Origin: Terrimicrobiaceae bacterium
GTDB lineage: Bacteria; Verrucomicrobiota; Verrucomicrobiia; Chthoniobacterales; Terrimicrobiaceae
DNA: 64,000 bases
Reading direction: 5' to 3'
Assembly: GCA_044342325.1 (NCBI GenBank)
Contig: JBIIPZ010000001.1
Span: forward strand, 64,001 to 128,000
The notes beneath the pieces were generated by a model. The model saw nothing but the letters and a program-made list of their open reading frames with translations, ran no database searches and had not been told where the DNA came from. Shown piece by piece: positions 4,856 to 44,145 of the stretch. Each line of letters begins with the position of its first letter. Within the stretch, counting starts at the first letter, position 1. The position numbers and the translations under genes are program-made.

Positions 4856-5578
4856 TCAGCGGCCTTTCTCGAGGCGGGTGGCGAGTTTCTCAGGCAAGCC
4901 GGCGGCGAGTATGGCGGCTTGGGCGCCGCGAAGGTCGTATTCGATCCGGCGCAATTCGACTTCCTGACGCTCGGTGTCGTAGATGCAATAGGCCGCCCGC
5001 CAGTCTGCATCCCTCGGTTGGCCGACGCTGCCGACATTGATGAGATATTTTTGGCTGCGATCGATCGGGAGGATATCGAGCGGAACGGTGCGGAAATCGC
5101 CTTCCTTCATGTAGGCGACGGGAACATGCGTGTGGCCGATGAAGCAAATGCCAGTTCGCTGGTAGCTGAAATTCGCCGCCGCATCGAGTTCGGTGTTTAC
5201 GTAGCCCCACTTGTGAGGGGTGTCGAGCGTGGCGTGGACGATGGTGAAATCGCGCACCAGGCGTTGCATGCGGAGTTCCCGCAACCATTGCATGTCGGCC
5301 GGATTGAGTTGATTTCGGGTCCAGCCCAAGGCCTCCTCCGCGAGGGGATTCAATCCTTCTTGAAAGAACTCCTTCGAGGCTTGCTCGTCGTGGTTGCCTT
5401 TGACCGTGGGGCAATCGAGTTCGCGGATGATGTCCACGCACTCTTTGGGATAGGCACAGTAGCCTACGATATCTCCCATGCAGACATGGTGCGTGACCTC
5501 CTGCTCAGCAGCATCCGCCAAAACAGCATGGAGCGCATGCAGGTTGGCGTGGATATCTCCGAGGATGGCAAATCTCAT
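4856..5578 (-). CDS. Calcineurin-like metallophosphoesterase
   Basis: GDIHAN, GDIVGY, GNHD, GHTH, NVGSVGQPRD. Confidence 0.92.
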   Translation of the reverse strand: MRFAILGDIHANLHALHAVLADAAEQEVTHHVCMGDIVGYCAYPKECVDIIRELDCPTVKGNHDEQASKEFFQEGLNPLAEEALGWTRNQLNPADMQWLRELRMQRLVRDFTIVHATLDTPHKWGYVNTELDAAANFSYQRTGICFIGHTHVPVAYMKEGDFRTVPLDILPIDRSQKYLINVGSVGQPRDADWRAAYCIYDTERQEVELRRIEYDLRGAQAAILAAGLPEKLATRLEKGR

Positions 5579-12780: not shown

Positions 12781-14939
12781 CTACGCGCGGCGGAGGCTGA
12801 CAATGGTGGCGCGGAATTCGCCGCTGAGGTCGAGTTGCAGGGAATTGCCTTTGAGGGTTGCCGACAGGCCTTCTTTTTCGGGCCAGTCCTGATCGATTTT
12901 CCATCCGCTTTCGGCGAGTGGGATTTGCACGGACTTTGGAAATGCTTTGCCAAAGGTGTGGGCGACGAGCAGGGCGCGCTTGCCATTTTTCGAAGTGCGC
13001 AGCACGGCCTGCCAGCCTTGTGGGTGGCGCCAGCTTTTGCCGGTCTCGCTGTGGAAGGTGGAGTGGCCGTCGCGGATGATTGGATAGACGCGGCGGTAGA
13101 GTTCCATGGCGGAAACGCTGAGCTTCCATTGTGCAGCTGAGAGGTCGTGGACCTCGCCCGAAAGGCACATGCGGCCGAGGAAGGTGGCGGCGAGAGAGTA
13201 GGCGGGCGTTGCGCGGTGTCGTTCTTGCGCCGCACCGCCCAGATCTGTGACTGGCGCGGCAGGATGAGGCGTTGGAGATTGGCGGCGATGATAGAGATCT
13301 CGCGGGTCTCGTGCGCATCGGAGAATGATCCCATCGCGCAGAGGCCCATCATCGAGGGTTCGAGACGATGACCGCCGGAAGAGCAGTTCTCAATGACGAG
13401 ATCGGGAATTTCCTCGCGCATCTTGCGGAAGAATTTCTGCATGCCTTCGAGGTGCTGGCGCAAACCTTCACCGGGTGATTCGGCCCCATCGACGCCGAAG
13501 CCGATGGTCTCGTTGTAATCGACCTTGAGGTAGCCGAAGCCGTTGTTGCGCAAAAGGTCGATCGCCTTCTTGGTCAGATAATCGAACGTGCGCGGATCGC
13601 GAAAATCCCAGAAACGCCTGCCCGCATCCAGCACCTGTCCATCGCGACGCAGCAGCGCGTCGTCCTGAGCCGCCCGGGCGGAGTGAATTCCCAGCGTCTC
13701 CATCTCGAACCAAAGCCCGGGAATCAATCCGCACTCGCGGATGGCTTGGGCGGCTGCGGCAAGACCATTGGGAAAAAGGCGTTTGCTCACCTCCCAATCC
13801 CCATGCCCCGAGGACCAGCTCGTCCCTTCCGCCTGATACCAGCCCGCATCAATCACCAGGTATTTGGCAGGCGTCCCTTTGATCCGTTGGGCTAGTGCCA
13901 GCAGATCTTCCTGAGAGGGATTGCCCCAGCTGGTGCACCACTCGTTCACCACGATGGGCAGTTCGTTCTCGATCTTCGGCAAATTCGCCAGCGGGCCTTC
14001 CTGTGCGGAACTGAGGCGCTGCGCGAGTTCATCGATATTACCCTTGATACAACCGATCGTGGCGGCGGGCGTGTCGTAGGTTTCGCCTGCCTTTAGCGTT
14101 TTGAACCAATGTCCGAACTCGCGGTCGGCCTGACCACCCGATAGCGCGACGAAATCGTCCTTGCGGAACACTTCCATCTGCCACGAGCCGGGAGTGGCAA
14201 GTTGTGCGCCCCAGAGCACGCCGGCCTCGCGATCCTCGAGCGCGACGAAGGGGAAAAATCTCCGCACCGGCATCGAGCCAACCTGGCCAAAGCGTTCGCA
14301 GGCGATGCCGTGACCGATCCATGACCGCTCAAGTTGCAGGTCTTCGATGTCTTGCGTATTGAGGCGCCCTTCGGCACTCCAAGTGGAGCGGTAGCGATGC
14401 ACGGCCAAACGGTTCGGCGCGTCATCATGGGCATAGGGCGTCATGCCACCGAGCGAGAAGCTGCTGAGCATTTCGAGGGTCACCGGTTTCTTACCGGCAT
14501 TTCGCACGCTCACACGACTGGAAAAAACCGGTGTGTTTCCCTGCTATGAAAGCCTATGCTCGCAGCGCAAGCCCGAGGGATGCTTGAGGGTGGTGATGAC
14601 GCGCGTGCTGCCGTTTTTCTTGTGAACCTTCTGACCGATGAATTCGAGAACCTCCGTCGAGTGCCCCGCCCGCATGGTGCGACCCTGGGAAAAGGACCCG
14701 CCATAGATGTCCTCCATGCACTTGAGCTGCACCAGCGCATCGAGCGACCACGCATGCATCGGTTGCCACATTGCCGGCAGGCCCACGATCTCGACATCCG
14801 GCGGCAGGAATTCGCGATGCTTCACCGGCGCGAGCGATTTCGGATGAAGCGAGAGCTGCGGCGCGCCCTTGCCTTCGGCGGGTGCATCGAAGCGGATGAT
14901 CGTGTCGCCGACGGTGAATTTGGAAAGGAGTTTGGTCAT
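12781..14939 (-). pseudogene. GH36 alpha-galactosidase pseudogene
   Basis: VIDAGW, GLWFE, YLKVDYN, IENCSSGG. In-frame TAG at 14544-14546 and a 1-nt frameshift near 13204 (restoring it gives QRLAYSLAATFLGRMCLSG). Confidence 0.85.
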
Positions 14940-16033
14940 GATAAAGTAAGTATTAAGGGAGCGTCGGTCTCACTGAAACTTGCGGATGAAGTCAGGTGCA
15001 AACAAAATAATCTCCGTTTCGAGGCCGCGATCCGAACTTCGAAGACGGCTGCCGGGGCGTTGCTTTGCCTGGATGGCATTTCCAAGCGCAGGCAGTCGGT
15101 GGAAATGCTGCCCTGGAAGGCAATGACATCACGCGCCTGATGATTCTTCTCGATCCCGTGCAGGATGCGTCCGGTTCCGTCTAGCAGGCGGTAGTCGCGC
15201 ACAGTGAATGGCATCACCCGCTCCGGGTGGTCCATTAATACGCTCTCAAGCGGATGATCCTAGTCGGCGTCAAAAGTGATTTCTACCCGGCCGATGTTTT
15301 GAGGTGAGGGCCATTTGAGCTCAAGCCAGGCGTTCCCATCGCTTGGAGCCGCCACCCAGGCGTTGGTGGCATCGTTCGGGCGTGGGATGCCATTGATGAC
15401 ATTTTCCGAACCGAACCCTTCGAGCGCGGGAGAAAACCTCAGGGCGAGGTTTTGTCCGGCGGGTCGGCGCACGGGCGACCATTGTTCAAACGAATCGACT
15501 CCGATTCCTTCCGGAGCCTTTTGATCGCTTTTACGCCGCACGGTAAGCAAGCCGGTGATCTGTTCCTCGCTGGTCCGAATCCGGACGGCGGGGTTTGCGG
15601 CGAAAAAGACGAAGGCATAAGTCGCTTGGGCAAATTCCGTCTCGAATTCGATTGTTACTTCCTGCGCCAGTCCGGCCGAGAGTTCGATGCGGCGTGTGGC
15701 GAGGGTGTGCTCCGGGGTGAAGTTGTCGGGCCGATGACCGGTGCGCAGCGCCACTTCGAGGGTTGTCGGTTCCGAAACATCGAGTAGGCAGGTGATCACG
15801 GAGACGCGTGCGGCATGCAAGGGGAGCAGTTGCGCCCACGAATGTTCGAGGTGGATCAACGGGCCGTCGGGTGCCAGCGCTGAGAGACGAAGGTCTCCGG
15901 AGGAGGTCAGCGTTGCCTTTCGGGCAAGATTCTCCTCATCGAGCAGGCGGTAGCCGGGGATGTGTTGGTCGGTGCGTGCGAGATCGCGGCGGAACACGCG
16001 CAGGCGCTCCGGTTCATTCAGATCGCGCGGCTT
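14936..16033 (-). pseudogene. 3' remnant of a large FAD-dependent oxidoreductase-type gene of sugar loci
   Basis: RTDQHIPG...NVINGIPRP..TNAWVA..WLELKW..ITFDAD*DHPLESVLMDHPERVMPF; in-frame TAG 15260-15262; N-terminal FAD domain missing. Confidence 0.65.
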
Positions 16034-16456
16034 GGTATAGCTGTCGAGCCGCATGACCAGTGTGCGGGCATCGCGCTTATCGGTCTTGACGCGCATGCAG
16101 CGCGGGTCGACTCGCTCGGGCGTGACGACGATATTAGCGACGCCCATTTCCTCCAGAGCGCGATGAAGGTGGTATCCGAAAGACTCGGCCTCGTAGCAGG
16201 AGTGGAGCTCGATGCCAGGGCCGCCGGAATCCTTGATGAACTTGAAAGCTTGCTCCGAATTCATCTTGAGCGAGGGTTGCGGGGTTCTGTCGCCGATCTG
16301 GCGACACACAGTTATCTGGTTCGCGTGGACATCCAGACCGAATTTGATTTTGATGATTTCCTTGGCCGGAGCCTCGAACTTTTGGCTTACTGCGTCTTGT
16401 TTCATATGGAGCCGACAGTATGGCGCGGTTCACGCCGTCTCTTGGCTACATGTCAT
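16034..16456 (-). mobile_element. Truncated IS110-family element (left end plus N-terminal DEDD/RuvC-like domain)
   Basis: ATG 16405; GLDVH, CYEA(E)SFGYHLHRAL, RVKTDKRDA motifs; C-terminal Tnp domain and right end absent. Confidence 0.85.
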
Positions 16457-16493
16457 CTCCCGGTTGCACGAGTCGCGCTGCCGCGCGGCAGCG
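16457..16493. repeat. Interrupted REP unit abutting the IS110 left end
   Basis: ctccc-ggtt-gcacgagtcgcgctgccgcgcgg matches ctccc-attg-gcacgaatcgcgctgccgcgcgg (19753-19784), but the REP hairpin is replaced by IS sequence. Confidence 0.7.
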
Positions 16494-16512
16494 TGATCGT
16501 TCGCGAAAAGCT

Positions 16513-17295
16513 TCAAACCACGATTGTGTGGGGCAGGGGGAATCCCTCGGCACCAGGGCAATGAACGCAGGTATGGTTGTTTCCGGAGGCTTGGAGTTTT
16601 TCCTGGATGGTGCCGGTGGCTAGTGCCGGGGCGTTGCAGTCCTCGCTTAAGTGCGCGAGGAGGACATGGCGTAGATCAGGGCTTGCGATTTCGGCAATGA
16701 GGCCGGCTGCGGCTTGATTAGAAAGGTGGCCGTGACGGGAGAGGATGCGTTGTTTCACAGACCAGGGGCGCTTCTGATCATTTTGCAGGAGGGTCTCGTC
16801 GTGGTTCGCTTCGATGAGCACGGCATTGACGCCGCGCGTCGCGTTGACCACCTGGCGCGGGGCGTGTCCGAGATCGGTGAGGACGGCGAAGGATGAGGAT
16901 TCATGTCTCAAAACAAAACCTACCGGGTCGGCGGCATCATGCGGCACGGAGAAGGGATGGATGTTGAAGTCCCCGAGTTGAAAGGCGGCTCCGCTTGAGA
17001 AGAAGCGCCACTCTGCTTGCATGCCGCCTTTGCGCAGGCTGTCTGCAGTGAGTGGGTTTGTGAAAACAGGGATCGCATTTTTTCCGCAAAGCCCTTTGAG
17101 GCCGCGCGTGTGGTCCACATGCTCGTGAGTGAGAAAAATCCCTGCGAGCATCTCGGGCGGCGTCGCCAGTCCAGCAAGAAGCTCGTTGAGGCGTTTCGCG
17201 CTTAGGCCTGCGTCGATCAAAATCGAAGTCCCTCCCGCCTTGGCAAGAATGGCGTTTCCCGAGCTGCCGCTGGCGAGGATGGAGACATGAATCAT
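16513..17295 (-). CDS. MBL-fold metallo-hydrolase (YycJ/WalJ-like)
   Basis: LASGSSGN, IDAG, THEHVDH, VPHDAADPVG, IEANHD, GHLSN, LAHLS. Confidence 0.9.
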   Translation of the reverse strand: MIHVSILASGSSGNAILAKAGGTSILIDAGLSAKRLNELLAGLATPPEMLAGIFLTHEHVDHTRGLKGLCGKNAIPVFTNPLTADSLRKGGMQAEWRFFSSGAAFQLGDFNIHPFSVPHDAADPVGFVLRHESSSFAVLTDLGHAPRQVVNATRGVNAVLIEANHDETLLQNDQKRPWSVKQRILSRHGHLSNQAAAGLIAEIASPDLRHVLLAHLSEDCNAPALATGTIQEKLQASGNNHTCVHCPGAEGFPLPHTIVV

Positions 17296-17398
17296 GAGCT
17301 TTTTATGGTAATCAAAACGGCTCATGGTTTGCGAGTCGAAGATCGGTGCGCAAGAGAGGACTTGCAGTGGATATGCGGCACGGATAGAGCCTTCGGAC

Positions 17399-18010
17399 AT
17401 GAAAAGTTTTCTCACACTTCGCAAGGGCGGCAATGATGCGGGTGTCGTTGCTTTGGTCGCCGTATGCATTTTGCTCCTCGCGGGATTCCGCGTGCTTCGG
17501 GCAGGACTTCTTCCGGAGTTGCCAAACTTCTCTCCGGTGGCGGCTGTGGCTTTTTGCGGCGGGCTTTTCCTGCCCGGCGTTCTGGCTTGGGTCGTTCCTT
17601 TCGGCATCCTCTTTGTTTCCGACCTGGCTTTAGCCATGCTCCTCGGATACCCGGCATTCAGCTCCGCGCAGTTTGTTTCCTGGGCCTGCATTTTGGCAGT
17701 CGTTGGAATCGGCCGCCTTCTGTCCAAAGCATCCTTCTCAACGCCACGATTTTTTTCCGCGTTGATCGGCAGCGGACTCTTTTTTTACCTCGTGACCAAT
17801 ACCGCCGCGTGGATCGGAAATCCCTCGTATCCCAGAGGCTTGGGCGGGCTTTGGATGTCGCTCACCACAGGATTGCCTGGCTTTCCTCCTTCTTGGATGT
17901 TTTACCGCAACGCGGTAGTCTCGGACCTCATCTTTGGAGCGTTGCTTCTGGCGGTTTGGGCTCTAGCCCGTCGCGCCGTGAGGGAAAATCCTCAGCTCCA
18001 CAGCGCCTGA
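17399..18010 (+). CDS. Integral membrane putative transporter substrate component (DUF6580-like)
   Basis: PNFSPVAAVAFCGG, SDL, FFYLVTNTAAW, YPRGLGGL, GLP; about 6 TMs. Confidence 0.7.
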   Translation: MKSFLTLRKGGNDAGVVALVAVCILLLAGFRVLRAGLLPELPNFSPVAAVAFCGGLFLPGVLAWVVPFGILFVSDLALAMLLGYPAFSSAQFVSWACILAVVGIGRLLSKASFSTPRFFSALIGSGLFFYLVTNTAAWIGNPSYPRGLGGLWMSLTTGLPGFPPSWMFYRNAVVSDLIFGALLLAVWALARRAVRENPQLHSA

Positions 18011-18687: not shown

Positions 18688-18772
18688 GCTCACGTGGCGG
18701 AACTGGCAGACGCATACGACTCAGGATCGTATGGGGTAACCCGTGGAGGTTCGAGTCCTCTCGTGAGCACCA
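18688..18772 (+). tRNA. tRNA-Leu (anticodon CAG)
   Basis: Acceptor GCTCACG/CGTGAGC, D-arm GGCGGAACTGGCAGACGC, anticodon arm TACGA-CTCAGGA-TCGTA, long variable arm, GTTCGAGTC, encoded CCA. Confidence 0.97.
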
Positions 18773-19495: not shown

Positions 19496-19514
19496 GTTTT
19501 TTGCGGCGCCTTTT

Positions 19515-19618
19515 GTGAATGAAAAATGGGCCATGCCGGAGGATGGGCCATGGTCACGAGGCGCGCTGTCGCGCGGTTTTTTTGTGGGAGGGTCAGCGTC
19601 TCGCCTGACCCAAAATTT
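19515..19618. repeat. REP doublet (REPIN-like)
   Basis: aaatgggccatgccggagg... plus spacer plus tgggagGGTCAGcgtctcgcCTGACCcaaa; near-identical to 22930-23037. Confidence 0.85.
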
Positions 19619-19718
19619 CGGGTGCGGCGGGCTTTCGTTTTGCAGAGTGGTGAGAGGATGGCGGGGCGTGTTGGACTGGGGAGTGGTTCGGGAGTTTTTT
19701 TGAGTTTCGACGGGTTAT

Positions 19719-19784
19719 GTGAATTGAAAATGGGCCATGCCGGAGGACGGCCCTCCCATTGGCACGAATCGCGCTGCCGCGCGG
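19719..19784. repeat. REP unit
   Basis: gtgaattgaaaatgggccatgccggaggacggccctccca..cgcgctgccgcgcgg. Confidence 0.85.
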
Positions 19785-19797
19785 TGGTGTGTTGTTT

Positions 19798-22890: not shown

Positions 22891-22929
22891 GGGGGAAGGG
22901 CGGTGGCGGAAAGTGGTCTGTGGCTTTTG

Positions 22930-23037
22930 GTGAATTGAAAATGGGCCATGCCGGAGGAGGGCCCTCCCATGGGCACGAGGCGCGCTGCCGCGCGGATTTT
23001 TTTGTGGGAGGGTCAGCGTCTCGCCTGACCCAAATTT
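22930..23037. repeat. REP doublet (REPIN-like)
   Basis: Inverted pair of TGGGAG-led hairpins separated by a cgcgctgccgcgcgg spacer. Confidence 0.85.
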
Positions 23038-23140
23038 GAATACGGTGGGCGGTTTTTAGAGACGGAATGGAGGCGTGCAAGGAATGGTGAGGGCAGTGCT
23101 AGGCAAAAGGGGGGGGCTGGTTTGTGTTTCGGCGCGTTTT

Positions 23141-23197
23141 GTGAATGGAAAATGGGCCATGCCGGAGGAGGGCCCTCCCATGCGCACGAGGCGCGCG
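23141..23197. repeat. REP unit
   Basis: gtgaatggaaaatgggccatgccggaggagggccctccca. Confidence 0.85.
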
Positions 23198-23203
23198 AGC
23201 AGC

Positions 23204-23240
23204 AAAAAGCGGATGCCTCCTTTGGGTGGCATCCGCTTTG
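23204..23240. terminator. Bidirectional intrinsic terminator (trpS/greA)
   Basis: aaagcggatgcc-N10-ggcatccgcttt. Confidence 0.8.
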
Positions 23241-23256
23241 TGAGTTGTGACCGGTT

Positions 23257-40756: not shown

Positions 40757-42112
40757 TTACTCGGAAGCGGGCGGTGTATCCTGGGGCAGCGTAGTGCTGG
40801 TTGGATCTACAGACGGGGAGGGATTCGGCGTCGGGCTAGGACTTGGAGTCGGCGAAGGTGTTGGCGTCGGCCACGGGGGCACAAGATTTGGCCATTCGTG
40901 CAATGGCACGGTGAGGCCGCCGAGTTCCTCAGCGAGTTGAGTGCATTTTTCCCGCCACTTCGCGAGATCAGGCGGGCCGGGGGATTCATCGGCCGAACCA
41001 GGGAAGACGAGGTAGGTCACATTGAGGTCGCTGGCGGCGCGGATGATATTCGACGAGCGCTGGCTGAGTTCGCGGCAGAGCAGGAGTGAGGCCTCGCCGA
41101 CTTTGTGGGAGGGGCCGGAATCGCCTAGGATGGCGGGATAGGCCCGGCCCTCGTGGATTACGATGGCGTAGTCCCCGATTTTCGGCACGAAGGGGCCGGT
41201 GTGGTCCCTCATGATGAATCCCGGTAGGACGATGAAGGGGTCCACCGAGGAGACCAGAAAGCTCCATTTCTTCAGGTCGTGGATGCGGCGGGTGGCGAGG
41301 TCGATGCCTTCGTTGATCTGGGTCACGCGTGCTGGCTTAAGTTCAGGCTTGAGTTTTTCGGCTTTGAAATCGGCGAGTCGCTTTTCCTCGATTGCCAGCA
41401 TGAGATTCGCCCGCTCGGTCTGTTTCGGCCAGCGATAGCTCGTCTGGGGAAGAAAGAAAATGGATGACGAATCGACTTGGACATTGCGGTCGCCATCCGA
41501 GCCGTCCGTGTTCACATCCATGTCAGCTATGACGAGCAGCGCGCGGCGCGATGTGGCGGTGTTCTCGAGCTCAAGCATCGTCTCGCAGTCGTAAAAATTA
41601 TGCCGAGTGAGCACGGCGTCGAGGTTGGCTAGCTTGCGGTTTAGGTCGTTTGTTTTGAGTTCGTAGATTTTTTCAAAAAACGGAGACACCGAAGCGCTGG
41701 TAAGCAGGACGGGAAGGTCCTTGAAAACGCTGGGCAGCGAGGGGTCGCTTGCCGCGATGTCTTCGAGCGCGAGGGCCGGGCGTGGCAGGCGGGCGCGCAA
41801 GGTCAGCTCGACTTTATAGGCATCCGGGTCACGGCGGTCCTGCGATGCCAGTTCGTTCGATGCATTCGCAACAGCGGCGGATTCCAGCGAGATGCCGCTG
41901 AAGAGCGTGGCCGTGGGAAGCGGCTTGCGAACCAGAGCGGGTATCGGCTTGGGCGTCGGGACCGGTGTCGGCGTGGGGGAGGGCATTGGCGTTGGGGGAG
42001 GAGGGGGTGGCGGCGGAGCTTTCGGGCAGGCGGTGAGGCTGAACGCGGCGAAGCACACTCCGAGAGCTGCAAATCCCCTGCGCCACCTGCCTGCCGTCGC
42101 GCCCGTTTTCAT
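40757..42112 (-). CDS. GH75 (chitosanase-like) lipoprotein with Pro-rich arms
   Basis: Lipobox LTAC, MDVNTDGSDG, GDSGPSHKVGEASL (Asp/Glu spaced as in fungal GH75), YLVFPGS. Confidence 0.75.
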   Translation of the reverse strand: MKTGATAGRWRRGFAALGVCFAAFSLTACPKAPPPPPPPPTPMPSPTPTPVPTPKPIPALVRKPLPTATLFSGISLESAAVANASNELASQDRRDPDAYKVELTLRARLPRPALALEDIAASDPSLPSVFKDLPVLLTSASVSPFFEKIYELKTNDLNRKLANLDAVLTRHNFYDCETMLELENTATSRRALLVIADMDVNTDGSDGDRNVQVDSSSIFFLPQTSYRWPKQTERANLMLAIEEKRLADFKAEKLKPELKPARVTQINEGIDLATRRIHDLKKWSFLVSSVDPFIVLPGFIMRDHTGPFVPKIGDYAIVIHEGRAYPAILGDSGPSHKVGEASLLLCRELSQRSSNIIRAASDLNVTYLVFPGSADESPGPPDLAKWREKCTQLAEELGGLTVPLHEWPNLVPPWPTPTPSPTPSPSPTPNPSPSVDPTSTTLPQDTPPASE

Positions 42113-43969: not shown

Positions 43970-44023
43970 TGATGCAAAATCCATACAACGACCGGATCGA
44001 ACTCGCAACTTCTTCCAAAACTT

Positions 44024-44080
44024 CCGCGCGGCAGCGCGTAGTTCCCATGGGAGGGGCAGCGTCTCGTCTGACCCAAATTT
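44024..44080. repeat. REP unit
   Basis: ccgcgcggcagcgcg..tgggaggggcagcgtctcgtctgacccaaattt. Confidence 0.8.
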
Positions 44081-44145
44081 CCAGCAAGGACGGCGCCTCT
44101 CAACAAATTGATGTGCCTACCCTGGCACATTCAGCAGTTCAAGCG

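Follow-up and report, generated by a model that had tools for sequence, protein, structure and literature searches.

The DNA analysed here is a 64,000-nucleotide stretch of contig JBIIPZ010000001.1 from a Terrimicrobiaceae bacterium (GenBank assembly GCA_044342325.1, positions 64,001 to 128,000 of the forward strand), referred to below as the window. On its minus strand, a repeat resembling the repetitive extragenic palindromic (REP) sequences of other bacteria breaks off at an AG dinucleotide, where the left end of an IS110-family insertion sequence (IS) begins, followed by the first 125 codons of its transposase gene. The fragment is probably the relic of an element of the IS1111 group, which inserted into the REP at an AG core by RNA-guided recombination and was later truncated by a deletion.

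The interrupted repeat and the ends of the element

Read on the minus strand, the stop codon of an MBL-fold (metallo-β-lactamase superfamily) hydrolase gene is followed by CCGCGCGGCAGCGCG (16488-16474), ACTCGTGCAACC, the motif GGGAG ending at 16457 and, from 16456 on, ATGACATGTAGCCAAGAG. The element side of the junction continues as ATGACATGTAGCC..., with the ATG of the transposase at 16405, 51 nt on. A preliminary description of this DNA had the REP cut right after GGGAG at this distance from the start codon, and the sequence reads the same within an ambiguity of 2 nt, which arises because AG belongs to both the element end and the target throughout the clade. In the six-copy alignment A3, the interrupted copy keeps to the repeat family as far as GGGAG and shares no sequence with it beyond. 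By hand count, it agrees with the copy at 19784 in 28 of 32 positions up to this point.

The combination of CCGCGCGGCAGCGCG, spacer and GGGAG has further minus-strand copies at 19784, 22995 and, partly, 23200, a plus-strand copy at 44024, and a minus-strand variant at 19576. In all non-interrupted copies except the 19576 variant, which is without GGGA, GGGAG is followed by GG and a hairpin. The intact copies at 19784, 22995 and 44024 exist as the preliminary description had them, and the hairpins that follow GGGAG in these three start with GGCC... or GGGCAG.... The second hairpin of the repeat is either of type 1 (GGAGGGCCCTCC...GGCATGGCCCAT) or of type 2 (GGGTCAGCGTCTCGCCTGACCC).

An exact 15-mer of the interrupted copy is common to 19770-19784, 22981-22995 and 44024-44038. 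In the 64-kb window it has four exact occurrences and eight with at most two mismatches, against 1.22 expected, and none of 100 shuffles reached eight. Five repeat families, D1-D5, are present in the window, and the interrupted copy belongs to D4. Every REP copy is extragenic, lying between gene ends at one of five intergenic sites, and the copies fold as two hairpins per unit (z -0.9 to -3.1 against shuffles). As sequences that are repeated, extragenic and palindromic in this window, they can fairly be labelled a REP-like family. The repeats occupy less than 1% of the window by estimate. The motif TGGGAGGG has seven sites in the 64 kb, six within repeats and one outside the repeat clusters at 41105.

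The REP units are modular and clustered (19496-19797, 22891-23256 and 44009-44145), each combining hairpin 1, a spacer, (A/G)TGGGAGGG and one of the two second hairpins. An inverted type-2 hairpin sometimes lies alongside a unit, and the first two clusters are placed between convergent gene ends. The mosaic REP clusters of enterobacteria show a similar arrangement.

Relatives of the element were collected in one scan of genome contigs with two N-terminal peptide patterns, which yielded 78 loci; contigs with only the 3′ half of a close copy escape such a scan. One of these loci, L004, from a Terrimicrobiaceae metagenome-assembled genome, matches the window with 88% identity along 402 nt, starting exactly at 16458, at AGATGACATGTAGCC. 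In L004, AGATGAC is preceded on the left by the 3′ end of a Polbeta nucleotidyltransferase gene, unrelated to the repeat of the window. In this locus (1443-2125), the nucleotidyltransferase domain is broken by the element within its last ~12 residues, and the element provides the stop codon through its AG/ATGA (here and below, a slash between bases marks the crossover outside parentheses). The interrupted gene is paired with an NTase_sub_bind (HEPN-like) gene, the two forming a toxin-antitoxin-like pair.

The ends were also inspected in 39 more distant relatives (27-52% protein identity), with end patterns written after the first examples had been seen. The left end, found in 32 of the 39, comprises AG(A/T)T(G/A)AC, an inverted-repeat arm (ATGGGGx, ATGAGGG, ATGTAGC and others), a hairpin and the start codon. 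The right end was found in 30 and comprises TTGAC, 6-22 nt that include the other arm, AGC (or AGG), then AG and then variable DNA. These boundaries are borne out by multiple copies of one element in one genome. In L019 and L020, the end motif places the right boundary at 5425, and both copies lie in the same kind of hairpin target. As AG forms the first two bases of the element and also the first two bases after it, it is taken as the shared “core”.

Elements of the IS1111 group are described as having subterminal inverted repeats with extensions of 7 bp on the left and 3 bp on the right (PMC11187229; PMC11208160). The arms in the relatives are, for example, ATGTAGCC and GGCTTCAT+AGC in L001, and ATGGGGT and ACCCCAT+AGC in L013. 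The left end in the window, 51-53 nt long, matches this layout, with AGATGAC (7 nt) followed by ATGTAGCC, while the right end is deleted. The element had been assigned to the IS110 family in the preliminary description, with a short left end; both proposals are borne out, the family by NF033542 and by PF02371 in the homologs, and the assignment can probably be narrowed to the IS1111 group by GLCPSEYSSG in the homologs and by the architecture of the ends. The closer homologs of the transposase are the protein clusters P0002-P0007. A tblastn search of a plasmid collection with P0003 returned only relatives of less than 35% identity and no closer full-length copy.

Since L004 and about 30 more distant relatives begin at the same AGATGAC terminus, the repeat is target DNA and not part of the element. 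Moreover, the repeat is not carried along with the element, as its 15-mer and GGGAGGGTCAGCG occur in none of the 78 fetched loci.

Several further observations concern the ends. In all 30 right ends found, TTGAC is located 13-24 nt before the right terminus, AGC or AGG (e.g. L001 1737-1759). By analogy with ISEc11, it may be the -35 element of a promoter completed at the circle junction; a convincing -10 for such a junction promoter was not identified in the left end. L015 (3711-6756) contains two head-to-tail copies of one element, where the right-end junction of the first (..CCCCATAAAGGGGTCATAAAG) runs straight into the left end of the second, as expected if insertion recreates a usable adjacent target. 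Short arrays of TAAAGGGGTCA-like units surround the insertion sites in L013 (3815-3845 and 5353-5380), L018 (3750-3771) and L022 (2250-2275); they may represent a host repeat or footprints of earlier insertions. The CCCAT-GGGAG/GG of the window's repeat (22962-22975, 23173-23186 and 44043-44056) resembles the right-end junction of the clade, CCCCAT-AGCAG/GG or CCCTCAT-AGGAG/G (e.g. L013 5341-5358). This likeness could be due to chance, to target mimicry or to descent of the repeat from element ends.

Guide RNAs of the full-length relatives

Both ends could be defined for 26 insertions, which include repeated copies of four elements and are not independent. The elements are 1376-2080 bp long, and the 3′ non-coding region, counted from where the protein match stops, spans 248-890 nt. 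In 16 of the 26, this region holds the reverse complement of AG and at least 5 nt of the element's own right flank as an exact match, compared to 40 of 582 pairs with a dissimilar flank from another element and 95 of 5200 random 10-mers. In about ten clear elements two guides can be recognised. The first, the reverse complement of AG and the right flank, is typically located 70-100 nt after the gene, and further downstream where the 3′ region is long. The second follows ~25-33 nt past the first, after a small hairpin, and consists of a few bases of the left flank, AG and AT.

The pairing of the first guide with the right flank can be read in L001 (guide TGCCCCT, flank GGGCA), L010 (CCGCACT, TGCGG), L011 (GACGCCCCT, GGGCGTC), L019 (AAGCCCCT, GGGCTT), L023 (GCCCCAGCT, CTGGGGC), L027 (CCCGCCCT, GGCGGG) and L028 (GCCAAACT, TTTGGC). 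Comparison of these sequences shows that guide and flank covary around the shared AG in the relatives. Around 100 nt beyond the guides lies GGATAGCAGG, an internal copy of the element's right end with AG and G. This internal copy (ATAGC-AG or ATAGG-AG) agrees with the element's own end in 25 of 26 cases, the ATAGG form being found in six insertions (four elements) that end in ATAGG, and its trailing G fits the 22 of 26 right flanks that begin with G.

A conserved RNA of ~170 nt is present downstream of the gene for the transposase in the full-length relatives (alignment A2, 20 elements), and its consensus structure shows compensatory changes in 13 of 14 base pairs. The covariance model R1 finds the RNA in the loci of 21 held-out relatives, six of which hold near-identical copies of training elements. 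On more distant cyanobacterial, actinobacterial and other relatives R1 gave no match save one weak one, and no Rfam family was matched in the loci of ten relatives. The order and location of the guides agree with the published descriptions of the IS1111 group, in which the top-strand complement comes first in the seekRNAs (PMC11187229), and the bridge RNAs sit in the right end (PMC11208160). An exact donor guide covering AG and the left end was found in only 3 of the 26 elements. By eye, possible donor matches that are shorter or lack the core can be seen, for example ATGTCAT in L031, GTTTT in L029, and GCCA against GTCA in L011 and L010.

The window itself contains no guide RNA detectable by R1, which with filters off gave a best score of 9.1 bits (E 0.18). 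Motif searches of the window with GATAGCAGG and AAGTCATCT found nothing, and blastn of the 3′ region of L001 against it gave only chance matches (E of at least 0.07). The sole Rfam match in the window is a tRNA gene at 18688-18769 on the plus strand (RF00005, 52.8 bits). The preliminary description had the guide RNA probably in the deleted right end, and this is in line with the relatives, every full-length one of which has a guide RNA in the 3′ non-coding region that is deleted here.

An element of this clade would have integrated into the REP downstream of the MBL-fold hydrolase gene, crossing over at the AG within ...CCGGG-AG-GG..., where the second hairpin has its 5′ foot. To judge from the mechanism of relatives, elements of the clade would excise as circles, and the DEDD recombinase would use a ~170-nt RNA (seekRNA or bridge RNA) that is made from the non-coding region 3′ of its gene. 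One loop of this RNA would present both guides, namely the reverse complement of AG and 5-8 nt of right flank and, ~28 nt on, 2-6 nt of left flank with AG and AT, while the later segment GGATAGCAGG would be a repeat of the right end of the element itself. Recombination at the common AG would then set the element between the two halves of the target. By analogy, the copy in the window presumably used such a guide, and the guide presumably matched the REP. A later deletion to the right of transposase codon 125 produced a dead chimeric open reading frame, with damaging substitutions following.

The choice of the target

The preliminary description spoke of a REP-targeting IS110 element in this lineage. 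This goes further than the material allows, as one insertion is visible and the only other left flank of the lineage, that of L004, is a coding gene, so that one of two lineage left flanks is a repeat. The sequence beyond the cut in the REP does resemble the targets favoured by the clade. The commonest right flanks in the clade are AG/GGGTCA(G), and L006 is located at AG/GGTCAGG; the repeat continues after the cut as AG/GGTCAGCG in type 2, AG/GGGCAGCG in the 44024 copy and AG/GGCC in type 1. Judged by sequence, AG/GGTCAG and AG/GGCC of the REP are thus similar to AG/GGGTCA.

Hairpin or palindrome targets are found elsewhere in the clade. The site of L012 is the loop of a 13-bp palindrome, both L019 and L020 lie before GGGCTT..AAGCCC, and L027 and L010 are placed likewise. 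In 6 of 29 right flanks, a hairpin with 5 or more perfectly paired bp starts no further than 5 nt from AG, compared to 53 of 1160 random positions. A hairpin at the crossover was considered as a general rule of the clade and rejected on these counts, although they exceed the controls.

Several points weigh against RNA-guided insertion into the REP as a targeted event. The window holds one insertion, and its right junction and guide RNA are lost, so no complementarity between guide and REP can be demonstrated. The left flank of L004, in the Polbeta nucleotidyltransferase gene, shares only (G)nAG with the flank in the window. The match of the left-flank guide in the relatives is short, mostly 2-4 nt, which makes the surviving flank the less informative half of the target. 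By the simple exact-match test, 10 of the 26 insertions of relatives match their right flank over at most 3 nt. Targeting of hairpins or REPs is not a rule across the clade, as the 6 of 29 right flanks show, and the fold energies of the REP copies are only modestly better than those of shuffles.

A possible, though rather unlikely, alternative is that the element recognises only a short motif (nAG/G... or AG/GG(G)TCA), and that the repeat was hit because it contains the motif and because intergenic insertions survive, the REP being no dedicated target. The L004 copy, which is in a coding gene and not in a repeat, agrees with this, as do the four L029-type insertions, which share only GTT-AG-G around the crossover, the shortness of the left-flank guide matches, and the single TGGGAGGG site outside the repeat clusters. 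However, right-flank guides reach 5-8 nt beyond AG in 16 of 26 relatives, which points to a target specificity of ~7-10 nt. Six of the seven TGGGAGGG sites are inside repeats, and the sole insertion is found in a repeat, at a conserved position, even though repeats make up such a small part of the window.

It is very improbable that the junction was made by a rearrangement, truncating or other, that placed an IS fragment beside the repeat. The locus clearly underwent at least one large deletion, visible in the fusion of the transposase to the FAD-oxidoreductase, yet the repeat stops exactly at the native terminus AG+ATGAC, the same as in L004 and in the clade consensus, and a random breakpoint would fall at that base about once per element length. 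That the REP-like stretch is part of the IS, the true left end being further left and the other “REP” copies being solo ends or miniature derivatives, is hardly credible in spite of the likeness of CCCAT-GGGAG/GG to the right-end junction: L004, so similar within the element, has unrelated sequence directly left of AGATGAC, which largely refutes it, every relative whose left end could be defined starts at AG next to flanks that vary, and no fetched locus has the 15-mer or GGGAGGGTCAGCG. The preliminary description had itself named a left end extending past 16457 as the observation that would speak for this, and what was found in L004 and in 32 of the 39 relatives is a start at AG+ATGAC-type sequence with unrelated DNA to its left.

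RNA-guided insertion into the REP, the reading preferred here, can be compared with the behaviour of known elements. IS621 sits in REPs. Its bridge RNA is in a long left end, its right end is short and its core is CT, whereas in the clade of the window the left end measures ~50 nt, the right end carries the RNA, the subterminal repeats are 7-8 bp long and the core is AG. IS621, an IS110-group element of E. coli, is described as RNA-guided, with separate segments that bind the target and the donor around a dinucleotide core which both have in common (PMC11208160).

ISPa11, an IS1111-family element of Pseudomonas aeruginosa, is reported to be directed to REPs at a fixed position by an RNA guide (PMC11187229). 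The clade of the window has the same layout, with a DEDD transposase, a long 3′ non-coding region giving the seekRNA, and subterminal inverted repeats. However, the transposases are distantly related, the core here is AG and the repeat belongs to another sequence family, and the REP preference rests here on one insertion whose RNA is deleted. REP-directed insertion is also described for ISPpu9 of the IS110 family in Pseudomonas putida KT2440 (PMC12288879); it differs from the window element in host phylum and in the repeat. In ISEc11, another IS1111-family element, the 7-bp left extension repeats target bases and used to be taken for a target duplication, the element depends on its 3′ non-coding region, and a promoter forms at the circle junction (PMC11187229). 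Its target is a short linear sequence and not a repeat, and the shared bases are 4 bp as opposed to the 2 bp (AG) in the clade of the window. The lineage of the window is one of Verrucomicrobiota-type genomes, and the best IS110-family relatives found for it on plasmids are less than 35% identical.

Truncation of the element and its significance

The open reading frame 15260..16405 (P0001, 381 amino acids) is a chimera, which is IS110-like only over the first ~125 codons and belongs to a flavin adenine dinucleotide (FAD)-dependent oxidoreductase from residue 126. The NCBIfam model NF033542, “IS110 family RNA-guided transposase”, matches it over model positions 3-102 of 343 (E 6.6e-10), with a score of 38.6 bits that is below the 140-bit cut-off because only a fragment of 124 residues is left. 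The match to Pfam PF01548 is weak (E 0.018). In a tblastn search of the window with the 360-residue homolog P0003, residues 1-125 alone were matched, at 84% identity. The C-terminal PF02371 domain with its S/T-G motif is absent from the window copy by the same search, and the window holds a fragment and not a complete member of the family. The full-length P0003 scores 60.8 bits for PF02371, where the cut-off is 21.3, and carries GLCPSEYSSG in alignment A1, which fits the motif GL-P----S(t)G given for IS1111 transposases by Siddiquee et al. (PMC11187229).

The residues D25, E72, D109 and D112, invariant or nearly so in alignment A1, are all kept in the window copy. However, the surviving fragment has decayed: it has EAES where the relatives have a nearly invariant EAGP, and the hairpin of its left end is weakened to -7.2 kcal/mol (z -0.7), compared to -18.8 kcal/mol (z -6.3) in L004.

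The oxidoreductase part is 90% identical to the 753-residue homolog P0032 over residues 417-672 and 86% over residues 674-753, with an in-frame TAG at 15260-15262 between the two, and is therefore a pseudogene. By comparison with the full-length homologs, a deletion has removed two thirds of the transposase gene together with everything beyond it in the element. It also took the second half of the repeat as well as codons 1-416 of the FAD-oxidoreductase gene. Public sets list the chimeric reading frame as a predicted protein, in a cluster that comprises 14 sequences from 3 contigs; related genomes therefore probably have the scar as well. The features of the locus and the REP copies are collected in Table 1.

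Table 1. Positions of the element, the genes next to it and the REP-like repeats in the window
Feature	Position	Strand	Description
FAD-dependent oxidoreductase gene, 3′ portion, pseudogene	14939..16030	-	Corresponds to residues 417-753 of the homolog P0032; fused in frame to transposase codon 125
DEDD (RuvC-like) transposase, N-terminal 125 codons	16031..16405	-	NF033542; 84% identity to P0003 residues 1-125
IS left end	16406..16458	-	7-nt extension AGATGAC (16458-16452), subterminal inverted-repeat arm ATGTAGCC (16451-16444) and decayed hairpin, up to ATG
AG dinucleotide, crossover or “core” position	16457..16458	-	Common to the REP (GGG-AG-GG) and the IS left terminus (AG-ATGAC)
REP left part, interrupted copy	16459..16495	-	Extended palindrome CGCTGCCGCGCGGCAGCG, 12-nt spacer, GGG; from 15-mer, alignment A3 and fold
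MBL-fold hydrolase gene	16513..17727	-	Pfam PF12706 (E 7.4e-19) and PF00753 (E 2e-13); interrupted repeat just 3′ of the stop
REP cluster	19511..19617	-	Inverted type-2 hairpin (GGGTCAGCGTCTCGCCTGACCC; TGGGAGGG on + at 19585-19592) beside a variant type-1 unit
Intact REP copy	19715..19791	-	Hairpin 1, spacer, ATGGGAGGG, type-1 hairpin; between UbiE-type methyltransferase and phosphofructokinase genes
REP cluster	22926..23037	-	Intact type-1 unit (22995 to 22930) beside an inverted type-2 hairpin (+ 23004-23031); between class I tRNA synthetase and GreA-like genes
REP type-1 unit, first hairpin divergent	23137..23200	-	Repeat family, alignment A3
Intact REP copy	44024..44080	+	Hairpin 1, spacer, ATGGGAGGG, then type-2-like hairpin (GGGGCAGCGTCTCGTCTGACCC); between gene ends

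REP-directed insertion by IS110/IS1111 elements via an RNA guide is already established, and the element of the window is probably a further case, from a Verrucomicrobiota-type genome and in the form of a dead relic. A more speculative proposal, which is at present doubtful, is that the clade may be an undescribed IS1111 subgroup, with a fixed AG core and a compact ~170-nt 3′ bridge RNA or seekRNA that has a readable target loop and no Rfam family, and that the REP family of the window (..CCCAT-GGGAG/GG and hairpin) may have co-evolved with it, serving as its landing pad, or may even originate in its right-end junction (..CCCCAT-AGCAG/GG).

The relic is dead and unusable, and the useful material for collecting natural bridge recombinases is provided by the intact relatives (e.g. 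L001, L013, L019, L029 and L031), with their clearly paired guides and targets. The 381-residue chimeric “protein” is explained as a scar of an insertion and of a subsequent deletion that also destroyed the FAD-oxidoreductase gene. The locus offers a worked example of how the target of an RNA-guided recombinase can be read from sequence alone, and it extends the IS1111 layout, with its 7- and 3-bp extensions, subterminal repeats, 3′ guide RNA and shared core, to Verrucomicrobiota-type genomes.

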